NCBI RefSeq assembly: GCF_017876815.1
Contig: NZ_JAGIOS010000003.1
Location: 90,001 to 122,000 of the forward strand
DNA from: Sinorhizobium meliloti
GTDB lineage: Bacteria > Pseudomonadota > Alphaproteobacteria > Rhizobiales > Rhizobiaceae
Direction of reading: 5' to 3'
DNA length: 32,000 nt
In this document: one piece after another, positions 11-25,613 of the stretch
How the letters are laid out: every line of letters begins with the position of its first letter
Position numbering within the stretch: position 1 is the first letter of the stretch
Program-made: the position numbers and the translations under genes
Notes under the pieces: generated by a model
Told to the model about the DNA's origin: nothing
The model's input: the letters and a program-made list of their open reading frames with translations, nothing else
Database searches by the model: none

Positions 11-3000
11 ATGAGCTTCAATCTTTCCGCGCTCGCGGTTCGCGAACGAGCCGTCACGTTGTTCTTCATTGTTCTGCTGGCCGCCGCCGGCGTCTACGCC
101 TTCATGAGTCTTGGGCGCGCGGAGGACCCCTCCTTTACCATCAAGACCCTGACGGTCACTACGGTATGGCCAGGCGCTACCGCGCGCGAAATGCAGGATC
201 TTGTCGCGGAGCCGCTCGAAAAGCGCATCCAGGAACTGACCTGGTACGATCGCGTCGAGACGACGACAAGGCCGGGCTACGCCTTTCTGACCGTCACGCT
301 GAAAGACAGCACGCCGCCCACGGCTGTCGAAGAGGAGTTCTATCAGGCGCGCAAGAAGTTGGGGGATGAAGCCCGCAACCTGCCTTCTGGTGTCTTCGGT
401 CCCTTCGTCAACGACGAATATTCGGACGTGAGCTTCGCCCTTTATGCGCTAAAGGCCAAGGGTATGCCCATGCGCGAGCTTGTGCGGCAGGCGGAGGTGA
501 TCCGACAGGATCTTCTGCACGTGCCGGGCGTCAAAAAGATCAACATTCTGGGGGAGCGGCCGGAACAGATCTTTGTCGAGTTCTCCTATGCCAAGCTCGC
601 AACCCTTGGCATTTCAGCGCAGGACATCGCTGCGGCTTTGCAAAGGCAAAACACCGTCACACCGGCAGGCTCGATCGACACGCGCGGGCCGCAGGTCTTT
701 ATCCGTTTCGATGGCGCCTACAACAGTGTGCAGGCAATTGCCGACACGCCAATCGTTGCTGCCGGACGCACGTTGAAACTGTCAGATTTCGCGGAGGTGC
801 GGCGCGGTTATGAAGACCCCGCGACCTACATCATCCGCCATGAAGGCGAGCCCGCCATCATGCTGGGCGCAGTGATGCAGCAAGGCTGGAATGGGCTGGA
901 ACTCGGAAAGGCGCTCGAAGAAAGATCTGCCGCGATCGCACGGACGCTGCCGCTCGGTATGACGCTCGCCAAGGTCAGCGACCAAGCTGTCAACATCGAC
1001 GCTGCGGTCGGCGAGTTCATGCTGAAATTCGCCATGGCGCTCGGGGTTGTGTTGCTCGTGAGCCTGCTCAGCCTCGGTTGGCGTGTCGGGATCGTCGTGG
1101 CGCTGGCCGTTCCGCTCACCCTTGCCGTAGTGTTCCTCATCATGTTGGAAACCGGCCGGTTCTTCGATCGCATCACGCTCGGCGCGTTGATCCTTGCGCT
1201 GGGCCTTCTTGTTGATGACGCCATCATCGCCATTGAGGTGATGGTGGTAAAGATGGAAGAGGGCATGGATCGCATCAAGGCGGCCGCCTATGCCTGGAGC
1301 CATACGGCAGCGCCCATGCTGTCCGGTACACTCGTGACCATCATCGGGCTGATGCCGGTTGGCTTTGCCAGATCAACCGCGGGCGAGTACGCCGGCAATA
1401 TCTTCTGGGTCGTGGGCTTTGCGCTAATCGTTTCCTGGTTCGTCGCAGTCATCTTCACGCCCTACCTCGGCGTCAAGATGCTGCCGGCGATCAAGCCAGT
1501 CGAGGGCGGCCACCACGCCATCTACGACACCCCGAATTACCGGCGCCTGCGGAGTTTCATCAAGTTCGCCGTGCGCCACAAGTTCATCACATGTGCGGTC
1601 GTCGGCGTCGTCATGGCTCTTTCCGTCGTTGGCATGGGAGGGGTGAAACAGCAGTTCTTCCCGACGTCGGATCGTCCCGAGGTGCTGGTCGAAGTCCGCA
1701 TGCCCGAAGGTACGAGTATCGAGACGACGACGGCCGCGGTCGAGAAGGTTGAAAGCTGGCTGCAGAACCAGCCCGAGGCAAAGATCGTCACCAGCTATAT
1801 TGGGCAGGGCGCTCCCCGCTTCTTCTTCGCCATGGCGCCGGAATTGCCGAACCCCGCTTTCGCCAAGATCGTTGTGCTCACCCCTGACTCTCACGCGCGC
1901 GAGGCTTTGAAGCTGCGCCTTCGGGCTGCCGTCTCAGACGGGCTGGTTCCCGAAGCCTACGTCCGTGTCACGCAGCTTGTGTTCGGCCCGTATACCCCGT
2001 TTCCGGTCGAGTTTCGCATCATGGGGCCGGATCCTGCGCAATTGTACCAGATCTCCGAGAAAGCCCTCGAGATCATGAAAGGCGTCCCGGACGTCCGTCA
2101 GGCAAACCGCGACTGGGGCAATCGTACGCCTGTGCTTCGCTTTGTCCCCGACCAGGACCGGCTCAATCTGATTGGCCTTTCGCCGGCTGAGGCAGCCCAG
2201 CAGATGCAGTTGCTGCTGAGTGGCATTCGGCTGACGCAAGTGCGCGAGAACATCCGCAACGTGCCCGTCGTCGCACGCAGTGCTGGCGAGAGCCGCCTCG
2301 ATCCGGCGAGGCTCGCCGACTTCTCGCTGATGAGCAGGGACGGCCGTCAGGTTCCGCTCGATCAGATCGGCCATTCCGAAATCCGGTTCGAGGAACCCAT
2401 CCTGAAACGTCGCGATCGAACGCCAGTCATCACGATCCGATCGGACATCAACGAGGCGACGCAGCCCCCGGAGGTCTCGCAGCAGATCATGACGGCACTT
2501 CAGCCGTTGATAGCCTCGCTTCCCGTCGGATATCGCATCGAAATGGGGGGAAACATTGAGGAATCTCTCAAGGCCAATGTCGCGCTGGTCAAAATCTTCC
2601 CGGCCATGATTGCCGCCATGCTGATCGTCATCATCCTCCAGGTCCGCAGCCTGTCAACGATGACGATGGTCATGTTGACCGCGCCGCTCGGTCTTGCCGG
2701 GGTGGTTCCGGTGTTGCTCCTCTTCAATCAGCCCTTCGGCTTCAATGCCATTCTCGGATTGATAGGACTGGCGGGAATCCTGATGCGCAACACTTTGATT
2801 CTGACCGAACAGATCAAGGAGAACAAGGCGGCCGGCCTCCACGATTATCACGCCGTTATCGAGGCGACGGTGCAGCGGACTCGCCCGGTTATCCTGACCG
2901 CACTTGCCGCCGTCCTTGCCTTCGTTCCGCTTACCCATTCGGTGTTCTGGGGATCGATGGCCTATACGCTGATCGGCGGCACGGCGGTTGGCACGGTGAT

Positions 3001-3121
3001 GATCCTACTTTTTCTTCCGGCACTGTACGCGGCATGGTTCAGGATCAAGCCGACTGCAGATGACACCCATGAGGAGCCGACCGAGGGGCCGGAATTGCGA
3101 ATAGCAATGGCTGCCGAGTAG
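11..3121 (+). CDS. RND (AcrB/AcrD/AcrF-type) efflux transporter permease subunit
   Basis: 1036-aa ORF. N-terminal TM helix followed by a large periplasmic loop, and an internally duplicated multi-TM layout. AcrB-family stretches such as LGLLVDDAIIAIEVMV and GLAGILMRNTLILTE. ATG sits at the window edge, so the adaptor gene is presumably upstream. Confidence 0.9.
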   Translation: MSFNLSALAVRERAVTLFFIVLLAAAGVYAFMSLGRAEDPSFTIKTLTVTTVWPGATAREMQDLVAEPLEKRIQELTWYDRVETTTRPGYAFLTVTLKDSTPPTAVEEEFYQARKKLGDEARNLPSGVFGPFVNDEYSDVSFALYALKAKGMPMRELVRQAEVIRQDLLHVPGVKKINILGERPEQIFVEFSYAKLATLGISAQDIAAALQRQNTVTPAGSIDTRGPQVFIRFDGAYNSVQAIADTPIVAAGRTLKLSDFAEVRRGYEDPATYIIRHEGEPAIMLGAVMQQGWNGLELGKALEERSAAIARTLPLGMTLAKVSDQAVNIDAAVGEFMLKFAMALGVVLLVSLLSLGWRVGIVVALAVPLTLAVVFLIMLETGRFFDRITLGALILALGLLVDDAIIAIEVMVVKMEEGMDRIKAAAYAWSHTAAPMLSGTLVTIIGLMPVGFARSTAGEYAGNIFWVVGFALIVSWFVAVIFTPYLGVKMLPAIKPVEGGHHAIYDTPNYRRLRSFIKFAVRHKFITCAVVGVVMALSVVGMGGVKQQFFPTSDRPEVLVEVRMPEGTSIETTTAAVEKVESWLQNQPEAKIVTSYIGQGAPRFFFAMAPELPNPAFAKIVVLTPDSHAREALKLRLRAAVSDGLVPEAYVRVTQLVFGPYTPFPVEFRIMGPDPAQLYQISEKALEIMKGVPDVRQANRDWGNRTPVLRFVPDQDRLNLIGLSPAEAAQQMQLLLSGIRLTQVRENIRNVPVVARSAGESRLDPARLADFSLMSRDGRQVPLDQIGHSEIRFEEPILKRRDRTPVITIRSDINEATQPPEVSQQIMTALQPLIASLPVGYRIEMGGNIEESLKANVALVKIFPAMIAAMLIVIILQVRSLSTMTMVMLTAPLGLAGVVPVLLLFNQPFGFNAILGLIGLAGILMRNTLILTEQIKENKAAGLHDYHAVIEATVQRTRPVILTALAAVLAFVPLTHSVFWGSMAYTLIGGTAVGTVMILLFLPALYAAWFRIKPTADDTHEEPTEGPELRIAMAAE

Positions 3122-3235
3122 CGTCTGCCGCGGGCTTGCCGGCCTTGCCTGCGCGCGAGCTTGGCCAGCCTTACGACTTGCCGCTCGCAAATGCTTCACG
3201 GCGGGCCGTTCCGTTCATCCATTCTGGGGGCATCC

Positions 3236-3766
3236 ATGGATTATCCGGTCCGACCGGGGGCAGATAGCGAAAACATGCGTGCACGCATCCAGGAGGTGGC
3301 GGAGGAGCACTTCCGTCGTGTAGGTCATCACAAGACGTCCGTAGCCGACATAGCCTCTGAACTCGGCATGAGCCGGGCGAACGTCTACCGTTTCTTCCCC
3401 TCCAGGGATGCAATCAAGGAATCCATCTGCAGGCGGGTCTTGGACAGTACCGCCGAGCTCGCCCTTACGATCGCACGCAGGAGCACGCCGCCCTCGGAGA
3501 AACTCGAGGAACTCCTGACCGCCGTTCACCATCACAACAAGACGAAACTGCTCCACGACAGGCAGATGCACGACCTGATCGTAGCCGCCATGCAGGAGAA
3601 CCGGCCGGTCATCAAGGTGCATGCTGAGCAGATGATGACGATTCTCGAGGCAATCATCCGCGAGGGCTCGAAACGGGCCAGTTCGAGGTCGAAGATCCCG
3701 CCGAAGCGGGCTTGCCTGAGCAAATTCGTCCTAAAGTCTCTCGAAAGGTCGGGCTATGCCCGCTGA
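3236..3766 (+). CDS. TetR/AcrR family transcriptional regulator, 3' end apparently frameshifted or truncated
   Basis: N-terminal HTH region RIQEVAEEHFRRVGHHKTSVADIASELGMSRANVYRFFPSRDAI is classic TetR_N. ATG at 3236 follows TGGGGG; alternative starts at 3161, 3191 and 3275. From about 3664 the called frame becomes basic low complexity (GSKRASSRSKIPPKR), while the +2 frame reads GLETGQFEVEDPAEAG, a typical TetR C-domain motif. Confidence 0.7.
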   Translation: MDYPVRPGADSENMRARIQEVAEEHFRRVGHHKTSVADIASELGMSRANVYRFFPSRDAIKESICRRVLDSTAELALTIARRSTPPSEKLEELLTAVHHHNKTKLLHDRQMHDLIVAAMQENRPVIKVHAEQMMTILEAIIREGSKRASSRSKIPPKRACLSKFVLKSLERSGYAR

Positions 3767-4074
3767 CCAGCCGGATGCGGACCTAGCCGCCTCAGCATCT
3801 GACAGTCGGCTTAGGGTGGTGAACAGACGTCCAGAAGAAGATCCCCCGGCGTCCGCTAGGCGGGACGAAGCCGCCGTTCATTAGTGACGCCTGGTCAAGT
3901 CGATAGCCAGCATGTGAGGCATGCTTCCGTTTAATGCGACGACAAACACTGGGATCGTTCGCAATTTACGGGGCAGGGGACAAGGTGTATTCTTTCGCAG
4001 AACCGCGGTGGCGACGTTTGAGAAGGCACGAAATTCCTTTATGACTGCGTGCAAGCCGTCCCGGAGATACAGCG

Positions 4075-4524
4075 ATGAGCCTGACGCGACGTCATATGCT
4101 GACCAGCACAATAGGAACAGTGGCATGTGCGGTTGCCCTGCTGACGCCGAAGCATACCCGGGGGACGGATGAGGTTGAGGACTTTCTCTTCCGTATAACT
4201 GGGCGGAAGGCAACCCCCTCGAATCGGCTTCGCCTCGTGATGCCGGCGGAATTCTCGACCGGGTATACGGTGCCCATGAGCATCTCGGTAGATAGTCCGA
4301 TGACCGAGGCCGACCACGTCAAATCCGTCCGTGTATTCGCTCCGAAGAACCCGCTCGTCGAAGTGGCACAGTTCCATTTCGTCCCGGGGCGCAGCCTCCC
4401 CCGCGTCTCGACGCGCGTCCGGCTTGCTGCCCCGCAACATGTGGTGGCACTCGCTGAGATGAGCAACGGTAACCTGCTGACGGCGAAGGCCTGGGTGGCT
4501 GTCGCCACCAATGGCTGTCTCTGA
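4075..4524 (+). CDS. soxY: SoxY-like sulfur carrier protein (Tat signal, C-terminal cysteine arm)
   Basis: Twin-arginine signal MSLTRRHMLTS. Immunoglobulin-like body with the SoxY-type segment VKSVRVFAPKNPLVEVAQFHF. A Cys is second from the C-terminus (..VATNGCL). SD GGAGA lies 7 nt before the ATG. Directly followed by soxZ. Confidence 0.8.
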   Translation: MSLTRRHMLTSTIGTVACAVALLTPKHTRGTDEVEDFLFRITGRKATPSNRLRLVMPAEFSTGYTVPMSISVDSPMTEADHVKSVRVFAPKNPLVEVAQFHFVPGRSLPRVSTRVRLAAPQHVVALAEMSNGNLLTAKAWVAVATNGCL

Positions 4525-4545
4525 AAGTTACGCAAGGAGGTAGGC

Positions 4546-4872
4546 GTGACCACTCCCATACCGCGTGTGATGGTTCCGGGCTCGGCGACAAAAAACGAAG
4601 TGTTCACGGTCAAGGCCATCATCCAGCACCAGATGGAGACGGGGCTGCGCACCGATTCCACGGGCAAGACGATCCCGCGGAAGATCATCAATCAGTTCGT
4701 CTGCCGTTACGGCGGAGTCGAGGTCTTCCGTACCGATCTGCACGAAGCCGTCTCGGCCAATCCGTTCCTTGAGTTCCAGTTGCTCGCGACGGGAAACGGT
4801 CTTCTTGAGTTCTCCTGGCGGGAGGACGGCGGCGCGACCTATTCGCTGTATCACGACATAGTGGTCACCTGA
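4546..4872 (+). CDS. soxZ: SoxZ sulfur carrier complex subunit
   Basis: 108 aa. VKAIIQHQMETGLRTDSTGKTIPRKIINQF and AVSANPFLEF match the conserved SoxZ core. GTG start preceded by AGGAGG at 5 nt. Confidence 0.85.
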   Translation: MTTPIPRVMVPGSATKNEVFTVKAIIQHQMETGLRTDSTGKTIPRKIINQFVCRYGGVEVFRTDLHEAVSANPFLEFQLLATGNGLLEFSWREDGGATYSLYHDIVVT

Positions 4873-4873
4873 C

Positions 4874-5245
4874 ATGAAGCGGGAACGGGCGGCCGCGACC
4901 GTCTCGCGTGCGAAGGGCCTCGCAGCCGAAATCCGGTGGTTGCTCGGTATTTCGCTTTGCGCGATCCTCCTGTTTCCCGAAAGGTCCGCTCCTGCGGAAG
5001 TGAGCCAAGGCGCGCAGATCGCCGCGACCTGCGCGTCCTGTCACGACCCGACTGGCGGCGGGCTGGCCATCCCGCCGATTGCGGCATTGGACGAACGGGC
5101 TATCGTGAAAGCCATGCTCGCCTTTCGTGCAAGTGAAAGCCCCAGCCATGTGATGCATGCGGTCGCATTGTCGCTCAGTGACGACGAGCTGGCCGCGACA
5201 GCGCGCTATCTCGCTGACAGAGCCAAAGCCGGGAGGCAGCCGTGA
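4874..5245 (+). CDS. Monohaem c-type cytochrome, FccA/SoxE-like small subunit of sulfide dehydrogenase
   Basis: One CxxCH (CASCH) after a signal-like hydrophobic segment. Class-I cytochrome c layout. Starts 1 nt after the soxZ stop and overlaps the next gene by GTGA, so translationally coupled to the flavoprotein. Confidence 0.75.
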   Translation: MKRERAAATVSRAKGLAAEIRWLLGISLCAILLFPERSAPAEVSQGAQIAATCASCHDPTGGGLAIPPIAALDERAIVKAMLAFRASESPSHVMHAVALSLSDDELAATARYLADRAKAGRQP

Positions 5246-6516
5246 CGGATTGGACGCGTCGCCAGATCGGCGCCCTGGCCGGAGGAGCGCTGCTGGCGGT
5301 GGCTGCACCACACACTGTTCGCGGTCAGGGACGGGCTAAGGTTGTAGTGATCGGCGGCGGCATCGGCGGCGCAACGGTTGCCCGATACCTCGGCGACATG
5401 AAGTCAATTGACGTCACACTGATCGAACCGAACTCCACCCACGTCACCTGCTTCTTCAGCAGCCACTACCTTGCCGGTCTTCGCTCGCTCGCCTCCCTGA
5501 CTTTCGGCCTGGAGACGCTGGCCGAAGGCCACGACATAACGATCATCCGCGACAGCGCCGTGGCGATCGACCCCGCCGGAAGGGCTGTCGAGCTTCGCGG
5601 CGGCACAAAGCTCTCCTATGACCGCCTCGTCGTCGCCCCGGGGATCGCCTTCAAGTTCGGCGAGATCGAGGGCTATGATGAGGACGCGGCAAAGATCATG
5701 CCGCATGCCTGGATTGCCGGACCCCAGAGTGAACTGCTGCGCCGGCAGCTCGAAAGCATGGACGACGGCGGTGTGTTCGTTATCGCTGCGCCTCCAAACC
5801 CGTTCCGCTGCCCGCCAGCCCCATATGAGCGGGCCTCGCTGGTCGCTTACTATTTCAAACAGTTCAAACCGAAATCGAAGATACTCATTCTCGACGCGAA
5901 GGATCAGTTTTCGGGTCAGGAACTGTTCCAGGATGCGTGGTCGCGTCACTATCCGGGCATAATTGAATGGCTACCTTCTCAGTTCACCGGGGCCATCAAA
6001 GCCGTAAATGTCGCGGCGCGATCGGTGGTCACAGAAGGCGAGACGTTCAGGGCGGCAGTCGCCAATATTATTCCTGCCCAGAAGGCGGGCCTCATCGGCG
6101 AGAAGGCAGGTCTTACGGACGCATCCGGCTGGTGCCCGGTCGATCCAGTGACGTTCGAGTCGACGTTGCAGCCCGGCATCCATGTCGTAGGCGACTCAAT
6201 TATCGGCGGCGACATGCCGAAGTCTGCCTTTTCTGCCAACAGCCAGGCCAAAGCATGCGCTTTTGGCATTGCGGCTTCCCTCACGGGTTCGCCTCAGTTT
6301 CCGCCGCACCTGTTCAACTCGTGCTACACGTTTCTAGCGCCCGACGACGCTTTCACCAATGCCCTTACCTTCGCACCCGAGGGCGGAAGGATAAAAACCG
6401 TGAAAATGTTCATCAGCAAGGTGGGCGAGAGCGCTGAGGTCCGCCGCCGCACCGCCCTTCACGCCGTGGGCTGGTATTCCGCCTTCACTGCAGACGTGTT
6501 CGGCGGTGGCCCCTGA
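5242..6516 (+). CDS. fccB: Flavocytochrome c sulfide dehydrogenase flavoprotein subunit (FccB/SoxF family)
   Basis: Tat signal TRRQIGALAGG. FAD fold KVVVIGGGIGGATVARYL. Family-typical FRCPPAPYERASLVAYYFK and PKSAFSANSQAKACA. Confidence 0.85.
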   Translation: MTDWTRRQIGALAGGALLAVAAPHTVRGQGRAKVVVIGGGIGGATVARYLGDMKSIDVTLIEPNSTHVTCFFSSHYLAGLRSLASLTFGLETLAEGHDITIIRDSAVAIDPAGRAVELRGGTKLSYDRLVVAPGIAFKFGEIEGYDEDAAKIMPHAWIAGPQSELLRRQLESMDDGGVFVIAAPPNPFRCPPAPYERASLVAYYFKQFKPKSKILILDAKDQFSGQELFQDAWSRHYPGIIEWLPSQFTGAIKAVNVAARSVVTEGETFRAAVANIIPAQKAGLIGEKAGLTDASGWCPVDPVTFESTLQPGIHVVGDSIIGGDMPKSAFSANSQAKACAFGIAASLTGSPQFPPHLFNSCYTFLAPDDAFTNALTFAPEGGRIKTVKMFISKVGESAEVRRRTALHAVGWYSAFTADVFGGGP

Positions 6517-6519
6517 TGG

Positions 6520-6767
6520 AATGCCTGGGGCTGCCGTTGGCCGCCGGGAGGATCGGCTGCGGGAATAGCACTGCGGCGGCAACCGACGAGATTGGAGCGG
6601 AACGCCAGAGGAGATTGGTGAGGATCGTCCGGCGAACCGCGCGGGCCACGTCGACGTCCAAGGCAACATCCAAACCCGCTGTCGGTAAGACGAGTGCGGT
6701 CTCTGCTAAAACATGCCGCCCCCTGCCAGTGCCAGTTCGGGTTCACGCAAGGATCGCCGTCGCCGCT
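6520..6767 (-). pseudogene. Relic of the 3' end of a ccoI/fixI-like P1B-type ATPase paralogue
   Basis: Minus-strand translation ..VDVARAVRRTILTNLLW..QPILPAA parallels the intact CcoI C-terminus ..VDVARAVRRTILANLMW..QPILAAA (20.5-20.7 kb). My hand DNA alignment of rc(6601-6670) against 20541-20612 gives 54/66 identical positions with one 1-nt gap. Weaker resemblance continues upstream over the GSATDLARETAGLVL and GDG regions. No start codon and broken frames. The relic is cut off by the fccB 3' end. Confidence 0.6.
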
Positions 6768-6787
6768 CAATCGAGACAGCGGCCGTA

Positions 6788-7258
6788 CTAGTACTTGCCC
6801 GGCTGCAGCACTGAACCGCTGTTGGACCAGGTAATGTATGCTTCGAGCGCCTTCATTGCCTCGGATTCGGGATCGATCTTCGCCCCTTGGTTCGGCTTCT
6901 CGATGCACCAGTTGATCATGTCGCGGAGGGTCGCGAACTTGGCCATCTGCGCCTGGAACTTCGGGAAGGATTGCGGGTGGGTGTCCGATGCCATCGGATG
7001 ACACATCGCGCAAGCCATGCCGGTTTTCGAGAGGTCGTCGGCAACGCCCATCGCTTCGGCCGTTGCGGCGTCGCCATGAAAGAGGAGGTCTCCTTTTCTT
7101 ACCTCCTCCATGAATGCTTCCTGGTAGAGCTTCAATTGCTCCGGCTTTACCGGATCTTTATGGGCGCTGCTCGGCCCCGCGAAAACGGCGGCAATGGCAA
7201 TTCCCCCCACCAGGCTGAAGCGCCGCAGTGAACAGCGGATTTTCGAGTGGGTTGTCAT
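6788..7258 (-). CDS. Secreted monohaem c-type cytochrome
   Basis: Start moved to the ATG at 7258 (MTTHSKIR..), preceded by GGAGGAAGG. The 224-aa track ORF would overlap the upstream gene. Signal peptide ..IAAVFAGPSSA. Single CAMCH haem site. C-terminal WCIEKPNQGAKIDPESEAMKALEAYI. Confidence 0.8.
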   Translation of the reverse strand: MTTHSKIRCSLRRFSLVGGIAIAAVFAGPSSAHKDPVKPEQLKLYQEAFMEEVRKGDLLFHGDAATAEAMGVADDLSKTGMACAMCHPMASDTHPQSFPKFQAQMAKFATLRDMINWCIEKPNQGAKIDPESEAMKALEAYITWSNSGSVLQPGKY

Positions 7259-7271
7259 GACCCTTCCTCCG

Positions 7272-8408
7272 CTAGTATGGCCACATGTTGTCGGCGATCC
7301 TTGGGCGAATAACCTCCGAAACATGCTTGTCATGGTCTTCGGGGGACTGCACGAAGACTTCCTTGCGCCCCCACATGATATATTCCGTTTCCAACTGGTC
7401 GTTGGCCGCCACGTCGATCTTGCTCCAGCCGACTCCATCATAGGGATCGCCGGGGTCGACACGGATCATCGGCTTGGTGAGCTTCGGCAAGCCTTCCGGC
7501 GCATAGGGCCACGGCCAGGACGTGGCTAGCATGCCGATCGAACGCAATGTGCCGATCTCGTTGTAGAGGACCTGGTGCACGTGACCATGAATGTTCGTGA
7601 CCTTGGCATAGGGTTTCAGCACCTCATGGACTTCGCGCCAGTCACGCACCCAGAAGTTCCACGGTGGATAATATTCGTAGAGCGGATTGTGACTGAAGAT
7701 GACCACGGGTCTTGCCTTATCCCAGTCGGCCAAGGTCTTTTCCATCCAGTCGAGCTGGTCCCGACCGACACCGGCCCATGGCCCGGCGACTGTACCGTCC
7801 AGCGTGGCCATGTGGCCCATGCGCTCCTCGGGCGTCATATTCTTTGCAGTCCAGTAGTCCGGTCCGCGGCTGACGGTATCGAGGCCGATGAAGCGCACGC
7901 CCTTGTGGTCGAAGGTCCAGTTGGGCTGCCCAAACAGTTCGCCCCATTTCTTGCCCATATCGAGATACCAGTCGTGCTCGCCTGGGATGTAGTGTTTCGG
8001 GATCGTGATCACCTTGAGTAGATCTACGCCGAGTTCAAGCTCTTCGATCTTTCCGAGCTGGGCGAGGTCACCACCGAAGATCAGGAAATCTGCAGGGGGA
8101 TCCATCGCTTGGACTTCCTGCGCCGCACGCACGACTTTGTCGACGAAGCGTGTGTTAAGGGATCTGGGATAGAGATGGGTGTCGGAGATCCAGGCAAACT
8201 TGAACGGCGCCTCGGCGGCATTCGCGATATCGAGCGTGTTCAGCAGAGGCCACCATGCAAAGGCCTGGCCCACAGTTGCTGCGCCAAATACCAATGACCC
8301 GTGAATGAATGTGCGGCGGGTAATTTTCAATGAGTCGTCGGGCCGAACCCCTTCGGGTTGCAGCACGGAATGCATTTCGCGGCGAATGCGGTCAAGTTCG
8401 TCAGACAT
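7272..8408 (-). CDS. Tat-exported metallophosphoesterase (calcineurin-like fold)
   Basis: Start at 8408 (MSDELDR..), preceded by GGAGGAGA. Twin-arginine signal ITRRTFIHGSLVFGAATVGQAFA. Complete metallophosphoesterase motif set: ISDTH, GGDLAQ, GEHD, SHNP, GHVH. Confidence 0.85.
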   Translation of the reverse strand: MSDELDRIRREMHSVLQPEGVRPDDSLKITRRTFIHGSLVFGAATVGQAFAWWPLLNTLDIANAAEAPFKFAWISDTHLYPRSLNTRFVDKVVRAAQEVQAMDPPADFLIFGGDLAQLGKIEELELGVDLLKVITIPKHYIPGEHDWYLDMGKKWGELFGQPNWTFDHKGVRFIGLDTVSRGPDYWTAKNMTPEERMGHMATLDGTVAGPWAGVGRDQLDWMEKTLADWDKARPVVIFSHNPLYEYYPPWNFWVRDWREVHEVLKPYAKVTNIHGHVHQVLYNEIGTLRSIGMLATSWPWPYAPEGLPKLTKPMIRVDPGDPYDGVGWSKIDVAANDQLETEYIMWGRKEVFVQSPEDHDKHVSEVIRPRIADNMWPY

Positions 8409-8519
8409 GACGGTTCTCCTCCCAGGAGGCCCGAAAGAAAAACTCGGCCCCACAGAGGCAGACATGGTGCGTAGGCCACGTCAGTTCTTTTCTTGTTTTT
8501 GTTGCGTAACTTTATCACA

Positions 8520-9239
8520 CTACTTTTTCTTAAGCTCGATATCGAGCGTCGTGGCTTTTCCGCCTTCAACGCTGACGGACATTTCCGTTGGCCCGATGAA
8601 GGGCTGCACCGCAACGAGTTTATACTGTCCGGGAGGAACATCCGTTATCGAGTACTTTCCGTCGGGCCCGGTCACCGCGTAGTAGGGATTATCCACGACG
8701 AAAATCCATCCCTCCATCCAACCATGCGCGTCGCAGTCGATGCGCACTGTACCCGTCCGGGGTAATTCGACCGGTATGCGCTGCCCCTTGTTTGGAAGGG
8801 CCAGGTTAAAGGCGGTACGCTTGCCGTAATAGCCGTGCGTGTTATGAAGCACCGGGTCCGAGTTGACGACGTCGAGCGGTCCTGCGGCGATCACCTGCAC
8901 CTGAGGTTCAAAACGGCATTTCTCGTTGTCGAGTTCAGGGGTCTTGCCAGGCGTCGGCCATTCTTTTCCGGATGCCACCTCGACAAGATAAATGACCGCA
9001 CTCTCGACCGCTTGATTGGCACCCACGCGGATCAGCGGCTCATCCCGCGGCTCTCCGCAAACCTCAACATCTTTGGTCGGGATGATCTTCTTCATCGGGA
9101 CATTGTCACGAAAGACGACGGTGCCCTCGATGGACCCGCCTCCGGTGACAGCGCTTACCTCATAGGAAAGCGCAGGGGGCGCGGTCATGATAACTGCAGC
9201 AGTAATCAGAAACTCAGAGAAGAAGCGGTGCTTTACCAC
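8520..9239 (-). CDS. Secreted cupredoxin-like protein with carboxypeptidase-regulatory-like beta-sandwich domain
   Basis: GTG at 9239 follows GGGAGG at 6 nt. Signal-like N-terminus ..AAVIMTAPPALS. Candidate type-1 copper ligands: H in SDPVLHNTHG plus CDAHGWM (C-x2-H-x2-M, amicyanin-like spacing). C-terminal YYAVTGPDGKYSITDVPPGQYKLVAV is typical of CarboxypepD_reg domains. The rest of the 483-aa track ORF is antisense to sco. Confidence 0.7.
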   Translation of the reverse strand: MVKHRFFSEFLITAAVIMTAPPALSYEVSAVTGGGSIEGTVVFRDNVPMKKIIPTKDVEVCGEPRDEPLIRVGANQAVESAVIYLVEVASGKEWPTPGKTPELDNEKCRFEPQVQVIAAGPLDVVNSDPVLHNTHGYYGKRTAFNLALPNKGQRIPVELPRTGTVRIDCDAHGWMEGWIFVVDNPYYAVTGPDGKYSITDVPPGQYKLVAVQPFIGPTEMSVSVEGGKATTLDIELKKK

Positions 9240-9257
9240 AGCGAACCTCCCTTCCCT

Positions 9258-9283
9258 TGAAGGAAACGTTGTATTTTCCTTCA
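9258..9283. promoter_or_regulatory. Inverted repeat TGAAGGAAA-N8-TTTCCTTCA in the divergent cupredoxin/sco intergenic region
   Basis: Perfect 9-bp arms read directly from the sequence, 19 nt upstream of the cupredoxin GTG, inside an AT-rich 243-bp divergent promoter region. Could be an operator or a 5'-UTR hairpin. No known consensus recognised. Confidence 0.25.
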
Positions 9284-9482
9284 GAATGATTCTAATATCA
9301 AGGTCAAATCGCGATATCGGTAGGCTGGGCGGCAAGTTTGGAGACACGCCAGTGGGAAGCATCCGACCGCACCCTTTCCCTCGTATCCATTCCAAGGCTG
9401 AGACCAGCCCTCCGACGTCGCAAGACATCGGTTTGTAGCTCGCGCACAGCGACAATGTCGGCTCGCGGTAAGGAGGCACGAC

Positions 9483-10091
9483 ATGGAGGGGCGGAACGAT
9501 CCGCATCGGGCTGCGACTTTCCACCGGGCGTTTTTTTATGGCCTCGTTTGCGCTGCGGTATTCGTCACCATGCCGGCTTTCGCTGCTTCGCCGGCGACTG
9601 TTGGTGGCCCATTCAATCTCATCGCACCCGATGGGGCCGTGGTGACCGATGCGAGGTTTCGCGGTAAATGGATGCTGGTCTTCTTCGGCTACACCTATTG
9701 TCCCGATCTCTGTCCGACGACGCTGAGCGAGATCGCTATCGCACTCGACAGGCTTGGCCCCGAGGCGGCGAAGGTGCAGCCGATCTTCATCACCGTCGAT
9801 CCCGAACGTGATACGCCTGAGGTAATGGGGCAATATACTGGCGCCATCGACCGGCGAATCTTGGGATTGACTGGCGATAAGCAGCAGATCGCCGCGGTGT
9901 CGCACAAATACGGCGCTTATAGCGAACGCCATCCACCGGATCCGGGCACCGGCGACTATGTCGTCGATCATAGTACTTACATCTACATCATGAATCCCAG
10001 CGGCAAGTTCGTTCGCGGCCTGCAGGCCGGCACGCCCGGTGATGCTATGGCCGACGCGCTGCGGCGTCTGATGCGGCAGAACGGCGAGTGA
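9483..10091 (+). CDS. SCO1/SenC family copper chaperone (thioredoxin fold)
   Basis: AAGGAGG lies 6 nt before the ATG. N-terminal membrane anchor. Copper-binding CPDLCP in [25 protein letters not shown]. Distal His in [17 protein letters not shown]. Confidence 0.9.
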
Positions 10092-11386
10092 TGGCCACGC
10101 TGACGGTGCGTGCGGATACGGGGAAGGCCATGCCTGAACATTTGTCGCATTCCAAAAGGTTCGGGACGGCGCAATATGATCACTTCTTCGCCGACGCTAT
10201 GGCGCAAATCCATGCCGAGCAGCGCTATCGTGTGTTCGCAGACCTCGAACGGATGGCCGGCGATTTTCCCCGCGCACTCTGGCATGGACCGAGCGGGTCG
10301 CAGGAAGTTATCATTTGGTGTTCGAACGACTATCTGGGCATGGGGCAGCACCCCAGCGTGATCGCCGCCATGACTGAAGCCGCGAAGCGTCTGGGAACAG
10401 GCGCGGGGGGCACGCGCAATATATCCGGAACCACTCATCCGCTGCTCGAGTTGGAGATCGAACTCGCGGATCTTCATCACAAGGAAGCGGCGCTGGTTTT
10501 CACCTCAGGATATGTCTCAAACCAGACAGGCATCTCCACGATTGCAAAGCTGGTCCCCGATTGTGTCATCCTCTCGGATGCGCTCAACCATAATTCGATG
10601 ATCGAGGGTATTCGGCAGTCGGGCTGCGAAAAGCGGATCTTCCGTCACAATGATCACCGCCACCTCGAGGAATTGCTGAGGACGGTGGGGCGGGGGCGGC
10701 CGAAATTGATCGTATTCGAAAGCCTCTATTCGATGGATGGCGATATCGCTCCGATTCGCCGCATCTGCGATCTTGCCAAATATTACGGGGCCATGACTTA
10801 CCTCGATGAGGTCCATGCCGTCGGCATGTACGGCCCGCGCGGTGGCGGCATCGCTGAACGAGACCGTGTCATGCACCGGATCGATGTTATCGAAGGAACG
10901 CTTGCCAAGGCCTTCGGCTGCCTTGGTGGCTACATAGCGGGAACCGTCACCCTCATCGATGCGGTTCGCTCCTACGCGCCGGGGTTCATATTCACCACGG
11001 CTTTACCGCCACCAATTTGTGCCGCGGCCACCGCCGCGATCCGCCATCTGAAGGTGTCTCACTCTGAGCGATGCGCTCATCAGGACCGCGTTCAGCGGGT
11101 AAAGGCAGAGCTAAACGGGGCGAGGCTGCCGGTCATGGCCAGTGGCAGTCACATTGTTCCCCTGCGCGTCGGCGATCCCGCGAAGTGCAAGGCAGCGAGC
11201 GATATGCTGCTCGAGGCTCATCGTATCTACATCCAGCCGATCAACTATCCTACCGTGGCGAGGGGAACCGAGCGGCTGCGCATCACGCCCTCTCCGTGCC
11301 ACGACGACATCATGATCAGTCAACTCGTGGCCGCGCTCAGCGAGGTCTGGGATGAACTCGGGCTGCCACGCGGAAGTGCCGCCTAG
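10091..11386 (+). CDS. hemA: 5-aminolevulinate synthase (ALAS, C4 haem pathway)
   Basis: [51 protein letters not shown] and the PLP-lysine motif EGTLAKAFG. The ATG at 10091 overlaps the sco stop (TGATG). Alternative starts are GTG 10088 and ATG 10130. Canonical ALAS would align from about QYDHFF. Confidence 0.9.
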
Positions 11387-11502
11387 CGGCGGAAATAAGA
11401 GACACCGCGTGAGCCTTAAAACAACGACTGCGTCAATTGCAAAGCGTTATTGCGTCCTTTGGTCATCCGCTCAGATGCGCGACGCAAAATAGGGAGGGAG
11501 AT

Positions 11503-13143
11503 ATGACGGCCAAGGAGATCAGGCTCGCTTTCCGGGCGCGCGATAGCATGCTGCATGGGATCGAGACGCTTGCACGCGCCGTCGCTGTCACGCTTGGCCC
11601 CCGGGGTCGAAACGTCGCCATCAACCGCTCCTTCGGCACAAAAATAACTAAGGACGGCGTGACGGTAGCAAGAGAAATCGAACTCGAGGACAAGTTCGAG
11701 GACATGGGCGTTCAGTTGCTCAGGCAGGTCGCCATCAAAACCTCGTATCAGGCGGGCGACGGAACGACCACCGCGGTGGTCCTCGCCGACGCAATTCTCA
11801 GGGGCGGTGTCCGAGCGGTCACTGCTGGCATGAACCCGATGGACCTGAAGCGCGGGGTTGATCGTGCCGTCGAGGCAGTCGTCGCGGAGTTGAAACAAAA
11901 TGCTAGATCTGTCGCTTCAAATGTCGAGATCGCGCAGGTCGCCACGATTTCGGCCAACGGAGATCGGGAGATCGGCCAGATCATCGCCGATGCGATGGCG
12001 GAGGTCGGCAAAAACGGCGTGATCATGATCGAGGAAGGGAGATCGCTCGAAACTGAAAGCGAAGTCATCACCGGGATCCAGTTCGACCGCAGCTACATCT
12101 CTCCCTATTTCGTCACCAACCGAGACAAAATGCGGGTGGAAATGGAAGAGGCACTCATTCTCGTTTGCGAGACGAAGCTGTCGAGCCTTAGCCAAATTTT
12201 GCCGCTTCTGGAAAAGGTCGTAGAGGCTGACAAGCCGCTTCTCATCATCGCCGAGGACTTCGAGGCTGAAGTCAGGGCGGCGCTTGTTGTCAACAGGCTC
12301 CGTGGCGGCCTCAAAGTGGCTGCTGTCAAGGCGCCGGCCTATGGCGAGCTCCGCAAGGCGATCCTGCAAGACATAGCACTGCTCACCGGCGGAACGGTTA
12401 TCTCGGAGGAGCTAGGTCTTAAGCTCGAGAGCATATCGCTCGACCGCCTCGGACGGGCCCGGAAGGTTAGAGTCGACAAACAAAATACCACGATCGCGGA
12501 AGGAGGCGGGTCAAGCGTGGAAATCGCTGGGCGGATCGCTGCGATCGGGGCGCAGCTCGAGCTAACTACGTCCGACTTTGATCGGGAAAAACTTCAGGAG
12601 CGGCTGGCACGGCTCTCCGCCGGGATTGCTGTGATCCGCGTCGGCGGCGCGACCGAGTCGGCGGTCAGGGAGAAGAAGGACCGCATCCGCAACGCCATGC
12701 ACGCCACCCGTGCCGCCGTAGAGGAGGGCATCCTGCCGGGCGGTGGGGTCGCGCTGCTGCGCGCAAGCAAGGCGATCCGGACTTTGAAGGTCGGGAACCT
12801 CGACCAGCAGGCCGGCATCAATATCGTCAAGGAAGCCGTAATGTGGCCGGCGAAGCAGATTGCGTCCAATGCGGGCGAGGAGGGCTCGGTCGTGGCCGCT
12901 AGAATTCTCCAAAACGATGACTACGGCTGGGGTTACGATGCGCAGGCTGGAACCTTTCGCGATCTTTTGGCGGCAGGTATTGTCGATCCCGCCAAAGTCG
13001 TGCGCACGGCGCTCCAAGGTGCCGCCTCCGTGGCCGGCCTCATGATCATGACGGAAGCGATGTTAGCCGAGGTGCCCGGCCCGCCGCCGCCTGAGCTTCC
13101 CGGCCATCATGACCATGAGGATAATCTCGACATTGATTTCTAG
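11503..13143 (+). CDS. groEL: Chaperonin GroEL (Cpn60), divergent copy with no adjacent groES
   Basis: ATG at 11503 preceded by [58 protein letters not shown] and [11 protein letters not shown] are all present. The C-terminus is ..[22 protein letters not shown] rather than a GGM repeat. Confidence 0.9.
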
Positions 13144-13511: not shown

Positions 13512-13754
13512 TCACGGCTCGCGTTCAGGAAGGTCGAAGTTGAGCTGCAACATTCGCGCTATGTTTATCAGAATCGTCTCACAGACTTTCTCTTGATTAG
13601 GATCGAGATATTTGACAGTCCAGTTTGCCCCGTTCTCCTTGGTTTCGAGCCGCTGAATCACAAAATCGGTGACGTGCTCGCAGCCCGGTTCCTTATGAAG
13701 ATCCGCGAGGATCAATTCCTTAAGCTCCGAAGCTTCCTTTGTATGTCTTTGCAT
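13512..13754 (-). CDS. Hypothetical small protein (80 aa), AT-richer than its surroundings
   Basis: ATG at 13754 preceded by GGAAGGAGA at 6 nt. Soluble-looking sequence MQRHTKEASELKELILADLHKEPGCEHVTDFVIQRLETKENGANWTVKYLD.. with no family recognised. Confidence 0.45.
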   Translation of the reverse strand: MQRHTKEASELKELILADLHKEPGCEHVTDFVIQRLETKENGANWTVKYLDPNQEKVCETILINIARMLQLNFDLPEREP

Positions 13755-14152: not shown

Positions 14153-15607
14153 TTGGCAGAGACTGGGATGGAGCTGCGCGGCAACTTTGCGAACGTTGAC
14201 CTGGATGCGCTGGTCGACCACCGGGTCGTGCGGACCTGGCTCTATTTCGGCATGTTCTGGCTGATGGTGACGCCATCCGTTGGCGTTTTGATATCGAGCA
14301 CCTTCAACTATCCCGACTATCTCGGCTCGGGGAACCTCGAGCTCACCTTCGGCCGGCTGCGCCCGGTCCACGTCAACGGTGTTATCTTCGGCGCCTTCTC
14401 GACGCTTTTCATAGGCCTTTGCTACTATCTCGTGCCGCGTCTGTCGGGGGTGCGGGTGATATGGTCAGAGTGGTCGGTTCTTCTCGCATGGGTCTGGAAC
14501 ATCGCAACACTTGCCGGTTTGGTCGGCTTGCTGATCGGCGACAGTGACGGTTTGGAAGCCGGAGAGCTTCCGCTATACGCTAAAGTCGCATTCTTCATCG
14601 TGGTGGGTGTTGCTACCGCGCAGTTCCTGATCACGATCAGTCGAAGGCTCGAGCCAGCGATCTATGTCGCGCTGTGGTACCTGATCGCCACTTTCGTGTG
14701 GACGACGATGAACTTCGTGCTTGGAAGCTTCATCCTGCCATACACGATCTCGGGCATCAACAGCGCCGCCTTCCATGGCCTCTATCTCCACTACATCGTT
14801 GGGCTGTGGCTAACGCCCGCAGGCTACGTGATCATCTACTATTTCCTGCCGGTCAGCGCGCGAAATCCGCTCTATGCCCATAAGCTCTCGCTGGTAGGCT
14901 TCTGGTCCCTGGCATTGTTCTACCCGTTCGTCGGCATCCACCATTACCTCTACAGCCCGATCGCCGACTGGGCCGAGACCTTGGCCGTCGTCACGTCGAT
15001 GCTGCTGATCATTCCGGTGTGGACGGTGCTGGTGAACTTCTTCGGCACCATGATGGGCAAGTGGCATGAGTTCGGCAGAAACCTGCCGGCGAAGTTCCTG
15101 ATCATGGGCTCGCTCATGTATCTCGTCGGCTGCTTCCAAGGCTCGACCGAGGCGCTGCGGCAGGTGCAGCAGCCGACCCATTTCACCGATTTCGTCATCT
15201 CGCATTCGCATCTTACCGTATTCGGCACCTTCGTCGTCTGGGCGATGGGGGGCCTCGTCTATACTTGGCCGCGGCTGTTCGGGCGCGAACTCTGGTCATT
15301 CAAGCTCGGCAACTGGTCGTTCTGGCTGATCACAGTCGGCATTGCGACCATGGGCCTGGTTCTCACAGCGGGCGGCCTGCAGCAGGGTTACCAATGGATG
15401 AATGGCGTCGAATGGCTCGACTCCCTCGTCTGGGTGAAGCCCTACTGGCTGGCGCGGACCCTGGCAGGTATCAGCATGGATATCGGCATTTCGCTGCTGG
15501 TGGTGAATCTGATGTTGACTGCGCTGACCAGCCCGGCGGCTGAGGCGCGACGCGTCGGCAGGCCGGAGGGGCCTATCCAGGCCCCGGCGGGAGGGCTCGC
15601 ACGGTGA
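14153..15607 (+). CDS. ccoN: cbb3-type (C-family) haem-copper oxidase subunit I, CcoN/FixN-like, divergent
   Basis: 12-TM protein. FGRLRPVHVNGVIFG (low-spin haem His). AAFHGLYLHY (CuB His). YPFVGIHHYLY has Y-x5-HH, the C-family cross-link Tyr plus two CuB His. ISHSHLTVFG carries the two haem His. TTG at 14153 lies 8 nt after GGGGAGG. Alternative start ATG 14168. Confidence 0.9.
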   Translation: MAETGMELRGNFANVDLDALVDHRVVRTWLYFGMFWLMVTPSVGVLISSTFNYPDYLGSGNLELTFGRLRPVHVNGVIFGAFSTLFIGLCYYLVPRLSGVRVIWSEWSVLLAWVWNIATLAGLVGLLIGDSDGLEAGELPLYAKVAFFIVVGVATAQFLITISRRLEPAIYVALWYLIATFVWTTMNFVLGSFILPYTISGINSAAFHGLYLHYIVGLWLTPAGYVIIYYFLPVSARNPLYAHKLSLVGFWSLALFYPFVGIHHYLYSPIADWAETLAVVTSMLLIIPVWTVLVNFFGTMMGKWHEFGRNLPAKFLIMGSLMYLVGCFQGSTEALRQVQQPTHFTDFVISHSHLTVFGTFVVWAMGGLVYTWPRLFGRELWSFKLGNWSFWLITVGIATMGLVLTAGGLQQGYQWMNGVEWLDSLVWVKPYWLARTLAGISMDIGISLLVVNLMLTALTSPAAEARRVGRPEGPIQAPAGGLAR

Positions 15608-17268: not shown

Positions 17269-17271
17269 CGC

Positions 17272-17496
17272 ATGCTCGGTTTTGAAGTTACCGGACCCTA
17301 TGTGGGCGCCATGCTGATGAGCCTGGCGGCCCTGTTCTTGTTCATCTGGGGCGTCCTGTCAGGCGCGTTGAGCGGCACCGACAAAGCCGCCAACGGGTTT
17401 TTTGAAAGGGAAATGGAAAATGAGCGATCTGCAGAGCAGCGATCCGGAGAGCCCGAGGCATCCGGAACTGGAGGTGCGTCAAAGCTCGCACCCTGA
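17272..17496 (+). CDS. Small single-TM protein, CcoS/FixS-like (alternatively CcoQ-like)
   Basis: ATG lies 3 nt after the ccoOP stop. One TM helix followed by FIWGVLSGALSGTDKAAN, resembling the CcoS pattern W-x3-SGQ-x-DD..A. Charged tail. The 3' 77 nt overlap the next ORF. Confidence 0.45.
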   Translation: MLGFEVTGPYVGAMLMSLAALFLFIWGVLSGALSGTDKAANGFFEREMENERSAEQRSGEPEASGTGGASKLAP

Positions 17497-17644
17497 ACTG
17501 GAGGACTATGCCGGCGGCCTGATACAGGCGCGTGTGGGGTTCATTCCGCTATGGCTTCTCGTCGTCTACATGCTGCTGTTCGGCTGGGGCCTGTATTACA
17601 TGTATGTCTATTGGGGCGGGCTCGGCCCCGGCCGTCTGTTCTAG
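17420..17644 (+). CDS. Small membrane protein resembling the detached N-terminal anchor domain of CcoP (FixP_N-like)
   Basis: ATG at 17420. The acidic N-terminus contains HPELE twice. EDYAGGLIQARVGFIPLWLLVVYMLLFGWGLYYMYVYW resembles the DGI..P.P.WW..F..T.....Y pattern of FixP N-terminal domains. No haem site. Confidence 0.45.
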   Translation: MSDLQSSDPESPRHPELEVRQSSHPELEDYAGGLIQARVGFIPLWLLVVYMLLFGWGLYYMYVYWGGLGPGRLF

Positions 17645-17677
17645 AAGACTGTCGCAAGGACCGTTAAGGCAGGAGTG

Positions 17678-17782: not shown

Positions 17783-17796
17783 CATAGGAGCAGCGG

Positions 17797-17919: not shown

Positions 17920-17938
17920 CGGCGCAGCGAAAACGCCA

Positions 17939-25073: not shown

Positions 25074-25108
25074 CCGTTGACCCACTTCAGCAAGGGGAAA
25101 GACGCGCC

Positions 25109-25585: not shown

Positions 25586-25613
25586 TTCGTCTGAAATCTG
25601 CAATCCCGCCCCC

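Follow-up and report, generated by a model that had tools for sequence, protein, structure and literature searches.

What do three consecutive genes for exported proteins, one of them a hydrolase-type enzyme lying between two apparent electron carriers, do together on a symbiotic plasmid? The genes are co-oriented on the minus strand at 6788-9239 of a 32,000-nucleotide stretch of Sinorhizobium meliloti DNA (contig NZ_JAGIOS010000003.1, positions 90,001 to 122,000; hereafter the window), which is an accessory region of pSymA, and they are predicted to encode a cupredoxin-like protein, a metallophosphoesterase (MPE) and a cytochrome c. The initial annotation had offered two hypotheses, namely that the MPE is a SoxB analogue in a sulfur pathway or that the trio feeds a cbb3-type oxidase, and our analysis shows that these are not alternatives but parts of one island. 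We tentatively favor the reading, which we regard as plausible though short of probable, that the trio is the enzymatic core of a non-canonical periplasmic Sox-like sulfur-oxidising module feeding its own cbb3-type oxidase. The gene structure given by the initial annotation was confirmed by the open reading frames (ORFs) and by PGAP, which drew the same boundaries in an S. meliloti pSymA record of 99.6% identity, and the products are named 'carboxypeptidase regulatory-like domain-containing protein', 'metallophosphoesterase' and 'hypothetical protein' in pSymA records. The trio is far beyond chance ORFs, as databases contain over 3,600 relatives of the MPE, the top 120 of which are all at least 69% identical. 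A full-text literature search found no paper on the trio or on the MPE-cytochrome pair, and the names 'soxYZEF-like' and 'hemA2' were found only in a comparative-genomics table.

The central enzyme, 378 aa long as initially described, matches the Metallophos family PF00149 with 46.9 bits (cut-off 21.5, E 6e-12). Its ORF is open to position 8465, and the conserved and annotated start is at 8408. The twin-arginine (Tat) signal that had been proposed for it was supported by the motif T-R31-R32-T-F-I-H, in which R31, R32 and F34 are invariant in 71 relatives; the Pfam TAT_signal match stayed below its cut-off. The metal-site motifs are D76-x-H78, G-D114, G-E144-H145-D146, H240 and G-H276-x-H278, of which DxH, GD, H and GHxH are invariant, while the third one reads GEHD, with Glu for the canonical Asn of GNH[DE], in 148/148 family ORFs. 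The protein has no cysteine. SoxB is exported by the Tat system and binds two Mn; the predicted Tat signal and the full dimetal ligand set of the MPE would be parallel to it, which favors a Sox-like role.

The idea that the esterase might group with SoxB or 5′-nucleotidases was, on the other hand, contradicted by profile and fold searches. By sequence, solved structures were matched only among GpdQ and purple acid phosphatases (PAPs), and GpdQ, Rv0805 and PAPs ranked first in the comparison of predicted folds, with neither SoxB nor a 5′-nucleotidase in the top 50. Pfam and NCBIfam scans of the MPE gave no SoxB or 5′-nucleotidase family at E <= 0.1, and the protein lacks the 5′-nucleotidase C-terminal domain. 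Because the profile searches and fold comparison favor GpdQ, Rv0805 and PAPs, the MPE is outside the SoxB family and is at most a SoxB analogue. Two AF2 runs produced moderate models (pLDDT 59 and 64) with a good MPE core, and the model served for fold-family assignment only. GpdQ of E. aerogenes and Rv0805/CpdA are the best sequence and fold matches of this core and share the order of its metal motifs, but identity is 15-18%, GEHD replaces GNHD, and the MPE differs from them in its Tat signal, in a conserved extra C-terminal region of 80 residues and in its obligate cytochrome neighbor. Equivalog cut-offs were not reached for either CpdA (NF008359, 45.8 bits against 225) or SpdA (28 bits against 400). 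PAPs share the MPE fold, match the second half of the family profile (E 6e-6) and provide a precedent for redox-active Fe in this fold; the MPE, unlike them, has no Tyr ligand (GDxxQ, not GDxxY), and therefore an Fe(III)-tyrosinate site is not expected. The C-terminal 80 residues (7272-7515) are Trp/Pro-rich and among the most conserved (SWPWPYAPEG...), and had pLDDT below 50 in both runs. They may fold only against a partner.

The start codon of the cytochrome gene is located 13 bp past the MPE stop. The product has a signal-like N-terminus and a single CxxCH (C83-A-M-C86-H87), so that the description 'monohaem cytochrome c' holds, but that description missed a more specific domain. PF21342, the SoxA/TsdA cytochrome domain, matches with 39.2 bits against a cut-off of 27 (E 7e-10), and a profile of 16 family members compared with the PDB retrieved SoxA 1H31 (E 4e-17), SoxA 2C1D (4e-13) and TsdA (6e-9). 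The SoxA equivalog TIGR04484 stayed below its cut-off (31.9 bits against 110). C118, within the sequence LRDMINWC, aligns with the haem-ligand Cys of TsdA and of both SoxA domains, and this near-invariant motif with its axial-position Cys is kept in 125 loci. In TsdA the ligand Cys carries an S-thiosulfonate intermediate (PMC4423706). The catalytic domain of TsdA belongs to the same fold family and can be aligned residue for residue around the ligand Cys, but TsdA itself contains two haems, has an electron-transfer domain of its own and works without a hydrolase, and neither its Arg119 nor its Ser127 is conserved in the cytochrome. Since the cytochrome is a SoxA/TsdA-type domain, the sulfur reading of the locus is strengthened.

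The cupredoxin-like protein begins with a hydrophobic signal-like segment and ends in a CarboxypepD_reg domain (PF13620, E 8e-9, above the Pfam cut-off), in line with the candidate copper site fused to a beta-sandwich that had been proposed. Candidate type-1 Cu ligands are H132 (in HNTH), C169, H172 and M175, with the amicyanin spacing C-x2-H-x2-M. All 89 homologous ORFs share this motif, and 87 of them also fit the longer pattern D-x2-[LIVM]-H-N-x-H (HN[TS]H). Similarity of the central region to solved cupredoxins is weak (E 0.01-0.1), with an amicyanin alignment that spans all four ligand positions, which we take to correspond to His53, Cys92, His95 and Met98 of amicyanin. The family profile matched amicyanin in the PDB no better than E 0.01, and no Pfam cupredoxin model matches the protein. 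The likeness to amicyanin and other type-1 cupredoxins is in the ligand pattern H...C-x2-H-x2-M, with weak statistical support, and the protein differs from amicyanin in its extra N-terminal region and the fused beta-sandwich.

A scan that covered 185,579 species genomes found a relative encoded in 323 of them. These belong mostly to the Hyphomicrobiales (Ensifer/Sinorhizobium, Mesorhizobium, Bradyrhizobium, Methylobacterium, Microvirga and Methyloceanibacter), and a few are metagenome-assembled genomes (MAGs) placed in other phyla. Synteny was counted in the 80 best loci of these 323 genomes, 54 of which have full 10-kb flanks. The SoxA-like cytochrome gene is directly downstream of the MPE gene in 76/76 species loci and in nearly all metagenome loci with downstream sequence, and MPE-then-cytochrome is an invariant gene pair across phyla. 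The cupredoxin-like gene is directly upstream of the MPE gene in 77 of 78 species loci. Apparent MPE-cytochrome and cupredoxin-MPE fusions (P0001, P0013, P0078) were frameshift or read-through artefacts and provide no Rosetta-stone evidence.

In the 80 species genomes the trio is set in an island of about 20 kb with a variant SoxY, SoxZ, FccAB, a cbb3-type oxidase, SCO1, 5-aminolevulinate (ALA) synthase, GroEL and a Cu-ATPase. Among the full-flank loci, the CcoN-like/CcoO-P oxidase was found in 52 of 54, SoxY/Z in 46, FccAB in 44-46, and at least one of SoxY, SoxZ and FccB in 49, followed by SCO1 (43), GroEL (41) and ALA synthase (37). The usual order, with ALAS for ALA synthase, arrowheads for gene direction and semicolons between blocks, is GroEL<ALAS<SCO1<; cupredoxin>MPE>cytochrome>CcoN>CcoOP>small ORFs>DsbD_2>Cu-ATPase>; <FccB<FccA<SoxZ<SoxY. 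In most other genomes the oxidase genes are thus directly downstream of the cytochrome gene on the same strand as the trio, an operon structure that supports the proposed link to a cbb3-type oxidase, and the co-occurrence with sox and cco genes that the initial annotation had suggested as a check is evident from the counts above. Its further statement that soxY and soxZ lie about 2 kb from the trio with no soxB in the window was also correct: no SoxB-like gene was found among the scanned window ORFs, nor did a motif search reveal a SoxB-like ORF in the collected loci. Neither the window nor the island has a conserved SoxX-like gene, and besides the genes listed the island has no conserved enzyme-sized gene, only three small membrane peptides. 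A comparison of 48 Sinorhizobium strains is in agreement, as its sulfur oxidation entries are only 'soxYZEF-like', present in 7 of 33 S. meliloti strains, and soxZ, with no soxB, soxAX or soxCD (PMC4053727).

The SoxY of the island is below the cut-offs for both true SoxY (TIGR04488, 83 against 125) and the AACIE-arm paralogue (107 against 172, NCBIfam), and so it is a distinct SoxY subfamily. Its arm is ...(V)AT[ND]GC-x at the C-terminus in 56 of 57 ORFs, the other one having a longer tail, ATNGCATE, and it is never GGCGG.

When 1.8 billion cluster representatives were searched, 1,594 relatives were obtained at E <= 0.001, 89 of them at E <= 1e-30. Among full-length relatives (30-48% identity) the Tat motif is retained, and so, with few exceptions, is GEHD. 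Three look-ups and 80 metagenome loci provided a sample of their gene contexts. ORF clustering of the metagenome loci is noisy (frame-shadow ORFs, high-GC DNA) and credible only for MPE, cytochrome, peroxidase and two families of regulators. Nearly all sampled loci of the wider family have a second architecture (type 2), with genes in the order dihaem cytochrome c peroxidase, MPE, SoxA-like cytochrome (L087-L149 and other metagenome loci). The MPE of these operons is about 42% identical to the window protein, and the peroxidase is nearer to cytochrome c peroxidases (E 1e-46 to 1e-49) than to MauG (1e-30). Hosts include Steroidobacteraceae, Nevskia, an Acidobacteriota MAG and a Polyangia MAG. 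A Cys in the N-terminal extension of the type-2 cytochrome ('xLCD') was considered as a built-in carrier and rejected, as it occurs in only 25 of 48 sequences.

Several divergent loci combine the pair with sulfur genes in other arrangements. In one operon (L162) the order is MPE>cytochrome>Lcl_C>SoxY>SoxZ, in another (L164) FccA>FccB>MPE>cytochrome, and in a third (L150) an ECF sigma/anti-sigma pair is followed by cupredoxin>MPE>cytochrome>fused SoxYZ>CcoN>CcoOP. The SoxY-SoxZ fusion of L150 (9240-10310 on a 1.3-Mb metagenome contig) has its Cys in an internal ...DGAGGC... linker. A third clade consists of short (313 aa) Tat-GEHD esterases with at least 8,000 relatives at E <= 1e-10. In each of three sampled loci (L090 12904-14745, L171 6001-7836, L172 6001-7318) a plastocyanin-type cupredoxin gene follows the esterase gene, a class-I cytochrome c is next in L090 and L171 (2 of 3), and an ECF sigma/zf-HC2 anti-sigma pair is upstream in L171 and L172. 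One third-clade operon is near a KatG-type peroxidase.

Taken together, the functional unit would be a Tat-exported dimetal MPE with GEHD and a small SoxA/TsdA-fold cytochrome with Cys at the haem-ligand position, which by sequence form the invariant part. The third partner can be exchanged, and in every case it connects to an electron sink, an oxidase through the cupredoxin or a peroxidase. The invariant pair and a third partner that always leads to an electron sink mark the pair as an electron-donating, dehydrogenase-type system and not a plain phosphoesterase. Reduced sulfur is the best-supported substrate in the clade of the window protein, since linkage to SoxYZ and FccAB is repeated and independently arranged, and SoxY is the likely carrier given that linkage and the predicted sulfur-type haem. 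The Sox-like reading is favored on these grounds, namely the SoxA/TsdA-type cytochrome with its conserved Cys, the invariant pair, the linkage to SoxYZ and FccAB and the oxidase downstream, and also because the island has no other conserved enzyme and the Sinorhizobium survey no soxB, soxAX or soxCD (PMC4053727).

From these genes, motifs and gene orders we infer every catalytic step, the identity of the metals and the direction of electron flow in the following scheme. Sulfide would first be oxidised by FccAB. The cytochrome, with a thiolate-ligated haem, could then oxidatively couple a sulfur anion (sulfide-derived sulfane, thiosulfate or sulfite) to the arm Cys of the variant SoxY or to its own Cys. 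The terminal sulfonate might be bound at the dimetal center of the MPE in the manner of a phosphoryl group and freed as sulfate, which would be SoxB-like chemistry carried out by a non-SoxB esterase. Electrons would pass via the type-1-copper protein, as a stand-in for SoxX, to the fused CcoO-P, to CcoN and to O2, and this additional branch of respiration would draw its copper, haem and folding capacity from SCO1, the Cu-ATPase, ALA synthase and GroEL.

The Sox system (SoxAX, SoxB, SoxYZ) of the Paracoccus/Rhodovulum type is the closest known system. Like it, the module would be periplasmic and has a SoxA-fold cytochrome with Cys at the axial-ligand position, a putatively Tat-exported, binuclear enzyme of the MPE superfamily, and a SoxY/SoxZ pair encoded alongside FccAB (SoxEF-like). 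However, esterase, cytochrome, SoxY arm and electron exit all differ. The esterase of the window is GpdQ/PAP-like without a 5′-nucleotidase C-domain, the cytochrome is a 156-aa single domain without Arg at -4, the SoxY arm is ATNGC-x in place of GGCGG, the cluster contains a cupredoxin and a dedicated cbb3-type oxidase, and the island has neither SoxX nor SoxCD. The SoxB-analogue hypothesis of the initial annotation is supported as to a sulfur pathway with SoxYZ, by context and by the SoxA-type cytochrome, and fails as to relatedness with SoxB, by fold and profile.

Several observations weigh against a Sox-like function. In both sequence and fold the MPE is closest to GpdQ, Rv0805 and PAPs and does not resemble SoxB. 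The best PDB match of the cytochrome is the non-catalytic N-terminal haem domain of dihaem SoxA. Catalytic SoxA and TsdA have an invariant active-site Arg four residues before the Cys, Arg119 in TsdA (PMC4423706); in LRDMINWC this position is taken by Met, and the invariant Arg of the cytochrome family is located six residues before the Cys instead. Without an equivalent of SoxCD, the fate of the sulfane sulfur held by SoxY is unexplained. Most peroxidase-MPE-cytochrome operons of the wider family have no SoxYZ or oxidase nearby, and the third GEHD clade is paired with a plastocyanin-like protein and a class-I cytochrome, without SoxA-like haem.

This last pairing is also hard to square with the MPE as a pure hydrolase and leads to the strongest rival, in which the MPE with its GEHD motif would itself be the oxidoreductase, by means of a redox-active dimetal site (Fe or Mn), a rather doubtful possibility in our estimate. 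The esterase itself may do redox chemistry, because GEHD esterases pair with electron carriers even where SoxA-like haem is missing. A hydroxide bridging the metals would attack either a bound oxyanion or the sulfane on SoxY, with the electrons going to the metal pair, so that the enzyme would act as a Mo-independent sulfite dehydrogenase or a SoxCD-like sulfur dehydrogenase, or possibly on another XO3-type substrate, and the metals would be re-oxidised one electron each time by the low-potential haem and the cupredoxin, towards the oxidase or, in type 2, the dihaem peroxidase. The universal exchange of Asn for Glu at a metal ligand (148/148 ORFs and the sampled subfamilies) is consistent with this, as an extra carboxylate should favor higher-valent metals. 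So are the electron carriers next to GEHD MPEs in three architectures, one of them without SoxA-like haem, a third partner that is an electron carrier to an oxidase or a true cytochrome c peroxidase, the PAPs with redox-active Fe among the nearest folds, and the lack of a SoxCD gene in the island, for which this reading would account. Against it, all hydrolase motifs are intact, including the catalytic His of G-x-H-D, and to our knowledge no enzyme of the MPE fold catalyses net redox chemistry. The AF2 model is also modest (pLDDT 64, with the C-terminal 80 residues unmodelled). If this is nevertheless the case, for which we see a limited chance, GEHD MPEs would be the first redox-catalysing enzymes of the MPE fold, in which a carboxylate-enriched Fe/Mn pair, coupled to a thiolate-ligated haem, would oxidise sulfite or carrier-bound sulfane to sulfate without molybdenum. 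They would then replace SoxCD and SorAB as well as SoxB, with electrons passed to a private cbb3 oxidase in the rhizobial clade, a periplasmic peroxidase in the soil and sediment metagenome clade and plastocyanin-type carriers in the third clade.

It is less likely, and in our view improbable, that the MPE-cytochrome pair is a periplasmic peroxide or oxidative-stress system that donates electrons to, or shields, haem enzymes reducing oxygen species (the type-2 peroxidase, or the cbb3 oxidase in the window), with the sulfur genes as separate neighbors. The commonest partner in metagenomes is indeed a dihaem cytochrome c peroxidase, OxyR-like LysR and Fur/PerR-like regulators, identified by sequence reading, are each present in about 10 of 84 type-2 loci, and type-3 operons follow ECF sigma and zf-HC2 anti-sigma genes, one being near the KatG-type peroxidase. 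However, regulators adjoin only a minority of loci and may merely mirror relatedness, the electron source is not accounted for, and both the predicted sulfur-type Cys-haem and the presence of SoxYZ or FccAB within the same operon in L150, L162 and L164 are left unexplained.

We consider it quite improbable that the trio is an assembly or metal-delivery (copper or haem) factor for the neighboring oxidase and oxidises no substrate itself. This role would fit the position of the trio between SCO1/ALA synthase/GroEL and the oxidase, DsbD_2 and Cu-ATPase genes as well as the copper-type ligand set of the cupredoxin-like protein, but that set is of the electron-transfer type-1 Cu kind and unlike those of PCuAC and Sco chaperones, it is hard to see what assembly would gain from a dimetal hydrolase site that is catalytically complete, and type-2 relatives keep the MPE-cytochrome pair without oxidase or copper genes. 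Finally, an ordinary periplasmic phosphodiesterase or phosphatase (GpdQ/CpdA-like) for phosphorus scavenging that happens to lie between two electron carriers, as suggested by the best sequence and fold matches (GpdQ, CpdA, Rv0805) and by the database label 'cyclic-AMP phosphodiesterase' on MPE relatives, is very unlikely in view of scores far under the equivalog cut-offs (46 against 225 bits for CpdA), strict cytochrome synteny across phyla, universal GEHD in the clade, extreme conservation (~70% identity across classes) and the absence of pho, pst or ugp genes linked to the MPE gene.

If the Sox-like reading is correct, several hundred species would carry a compact sulfur-oxidising respiratory branch built of non-orthologous parts, among them Sinorhizobium, Mesorhizobium, Bradyrhizobium, Methylobacterium, Methyloceanibacter and numerous lineages from soil metagenomes. 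A large protein family now mislabelled as 'cAMP phosphodiesterase' would gain a function, as would SoxY paralogues with non-GGCGG arms, and it would become clear how sulfur can be processed in organisms with SoxYZ and FccAB that lack SoxB, SoxAX and SoxCD. There would also be a reason for the extra cbb3-type oxidase, with haem, copper and chaperonin supplies of its own, on some rhizobial symbiotic replicons, and surveys that count soxB to assess sulfur oxidation would overlook this route. The question can be tested directly, since the invariant MPE-cytochrome pair is a small and soluble unit that is complete in itself.

The features of the window are listed in Table 1.

Table 1. Features of the 32,000-nucleotide window, in order of position.
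Position	Strand	Feature	Basis
11-3766		Left flank: AcrB-type RND pump, TetR regulator
4075-4524	+	SoxY paralogue, C-terminal arm ...ATNGCL not GGCGG	Translation
4546-4872	+	SoxZ	TIGR04490 SoxZ_true, 86.8 bits against 76
4874-5245	+	FccA, monohaem cytochrome	Cytochrome c families
5242-6516	+	FccB, flavocytochrome c sulfide dehydrogenase flavoprotein	PF21706, PF09242
6788-7258	-	SoxA/TsdA-type monohaem cytochrome c, 156 aa	PF21342
7272-8408	-	Tat-signal MPE, 378 aa, variant dimetal site	PF00149
8520-9239	-	Exported cupredoxin-like protein with C-terminal CarboxypepD_reg beta-sandwich, 239 aa	ORF, PF13620
9483-10091	+	SCO1/SenC	Pfam/NCBIfam
~10130-11386	+	5-Aminolevulinate synthase 'hemA2'	Pfam/NCBIfam, PGAP name
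~11500-13143	+	GroEL paralogue	Pfam/NCBIfam, PGAP name
14153-15607	+	CcoN-like subunit of divergent cbb3-type haem-copper oxidase	COX1 Pfam
15604-17268	+	Fused tri-haem CcoO-CcoP subunit	FixO Pfam
17420-17920	+	Small membrane ORFs, one resembling CcoS/FixS on reading	Conserved
~17939-18667	+	DsbD_2 / 'TauE-SafE' membrane protein	Pfam, PGAP
~18724-20877	+	P1B-type Cu-ATPase	Pfam/NCBIfam
21900-31900		Right flank: ornithine cyclodeaminase, DAO-type FAD oxidoreductase, AsnC regulator, peptide/opine-type ABC transporter

In the window the FccA and FccB genes are convergent with the trio, and SCO1, the second ALA synthase and the GroEL paralogue, which has no adjoining GroES, form a conserved unit divergent from it. 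This unit looks like a dedicated copper, haem and folding supply for an extra respiratory branch. 'hemA2' was described as an accessory gene and was found in 7 of the phenotyped S. meliloti strains (PMC4053727). As for the oxidase, its CcoO and dihaem CcoP-like parts are fused into one 554-aa protein with CxxCH at residues 74, 285 and 414. Scores are below the equivalog cut-offs (ccoN 228 against 583, ccoO 142 against 201) and the best matches are still cbb3 families, with the Pfam families COX1 and FixO reached, by which the oxidase is predicted to be a divergent C-family member. It resembles the cbb3 oxidase system (CcoNOQP/FixNOQP with CcoGHIS) in its CcoN-like and CcoO-like subunits, a CcoS-like peptide and a CcoI/FixI-like P1B Cu-ATPase, but differs in those low scores, in the CcoO-CcoP fusion and in the presence of the DsbD_2 protein; no CcoG or CcoH gene was seen. 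The three small membrane ORFs between the CcoO-P and DsbD_2 genes are conserved in 57-61 of 80 loci. PGAP assigns the DsbD_2 protein to the 'sulfite exporter TauE/SafE family', a name that would be suggestive if correct, and Pfam supports DsbD_2 only. A search for FixK/FNR boxes found none in the trio promoter and three one-mismatch matches where 0.56 were expected, none of these being upstream of the trio. One of the FixK/FNR-type boxes with one mismatch, TTGATTAGGATCGA at 13593-13606, is about 550 bp upstream of the CcoN-like gene, with weak statistics.

The order of genes in the window is rearranged, with the oxidase block beyond GroEL, as is also the case in window-type Ensifer. In a comparison of the window with L001, L006, L011, L014 and L007-L010, the CcoN-like, CcoO-P and Cu-ATPase proteins of this block (14153-20877) are 96, 93 and 92% identical to those of Mesorhizobium muleiense, but only 77-79, 73-76 and 60-63% identical to those of other Ensifer, whereas the trio shows the opposite pattern and is Ensifer-like. 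From these identities, the oxidase module looks to have been replaced by horizontal transfer or recombination. The left and right flanks (11-3766 and 21900-31900) are unrelated to the island.

Positions 4000-10100 of the window match pSymA of strain SM11 with 100% identity, and identity reaches 99% or more in 29 plasmid records. Three pSymA records from S. meliloti (H3, H4, H5) show the match to this segment broken into two pieces, and an IS630-like (ISRm2011-2) or IS66 transposase is annotated under the split matches of H4 and H5. Because of these split matches and the transposase annotation, the island may be interrupted in part of the S. meliloti population.

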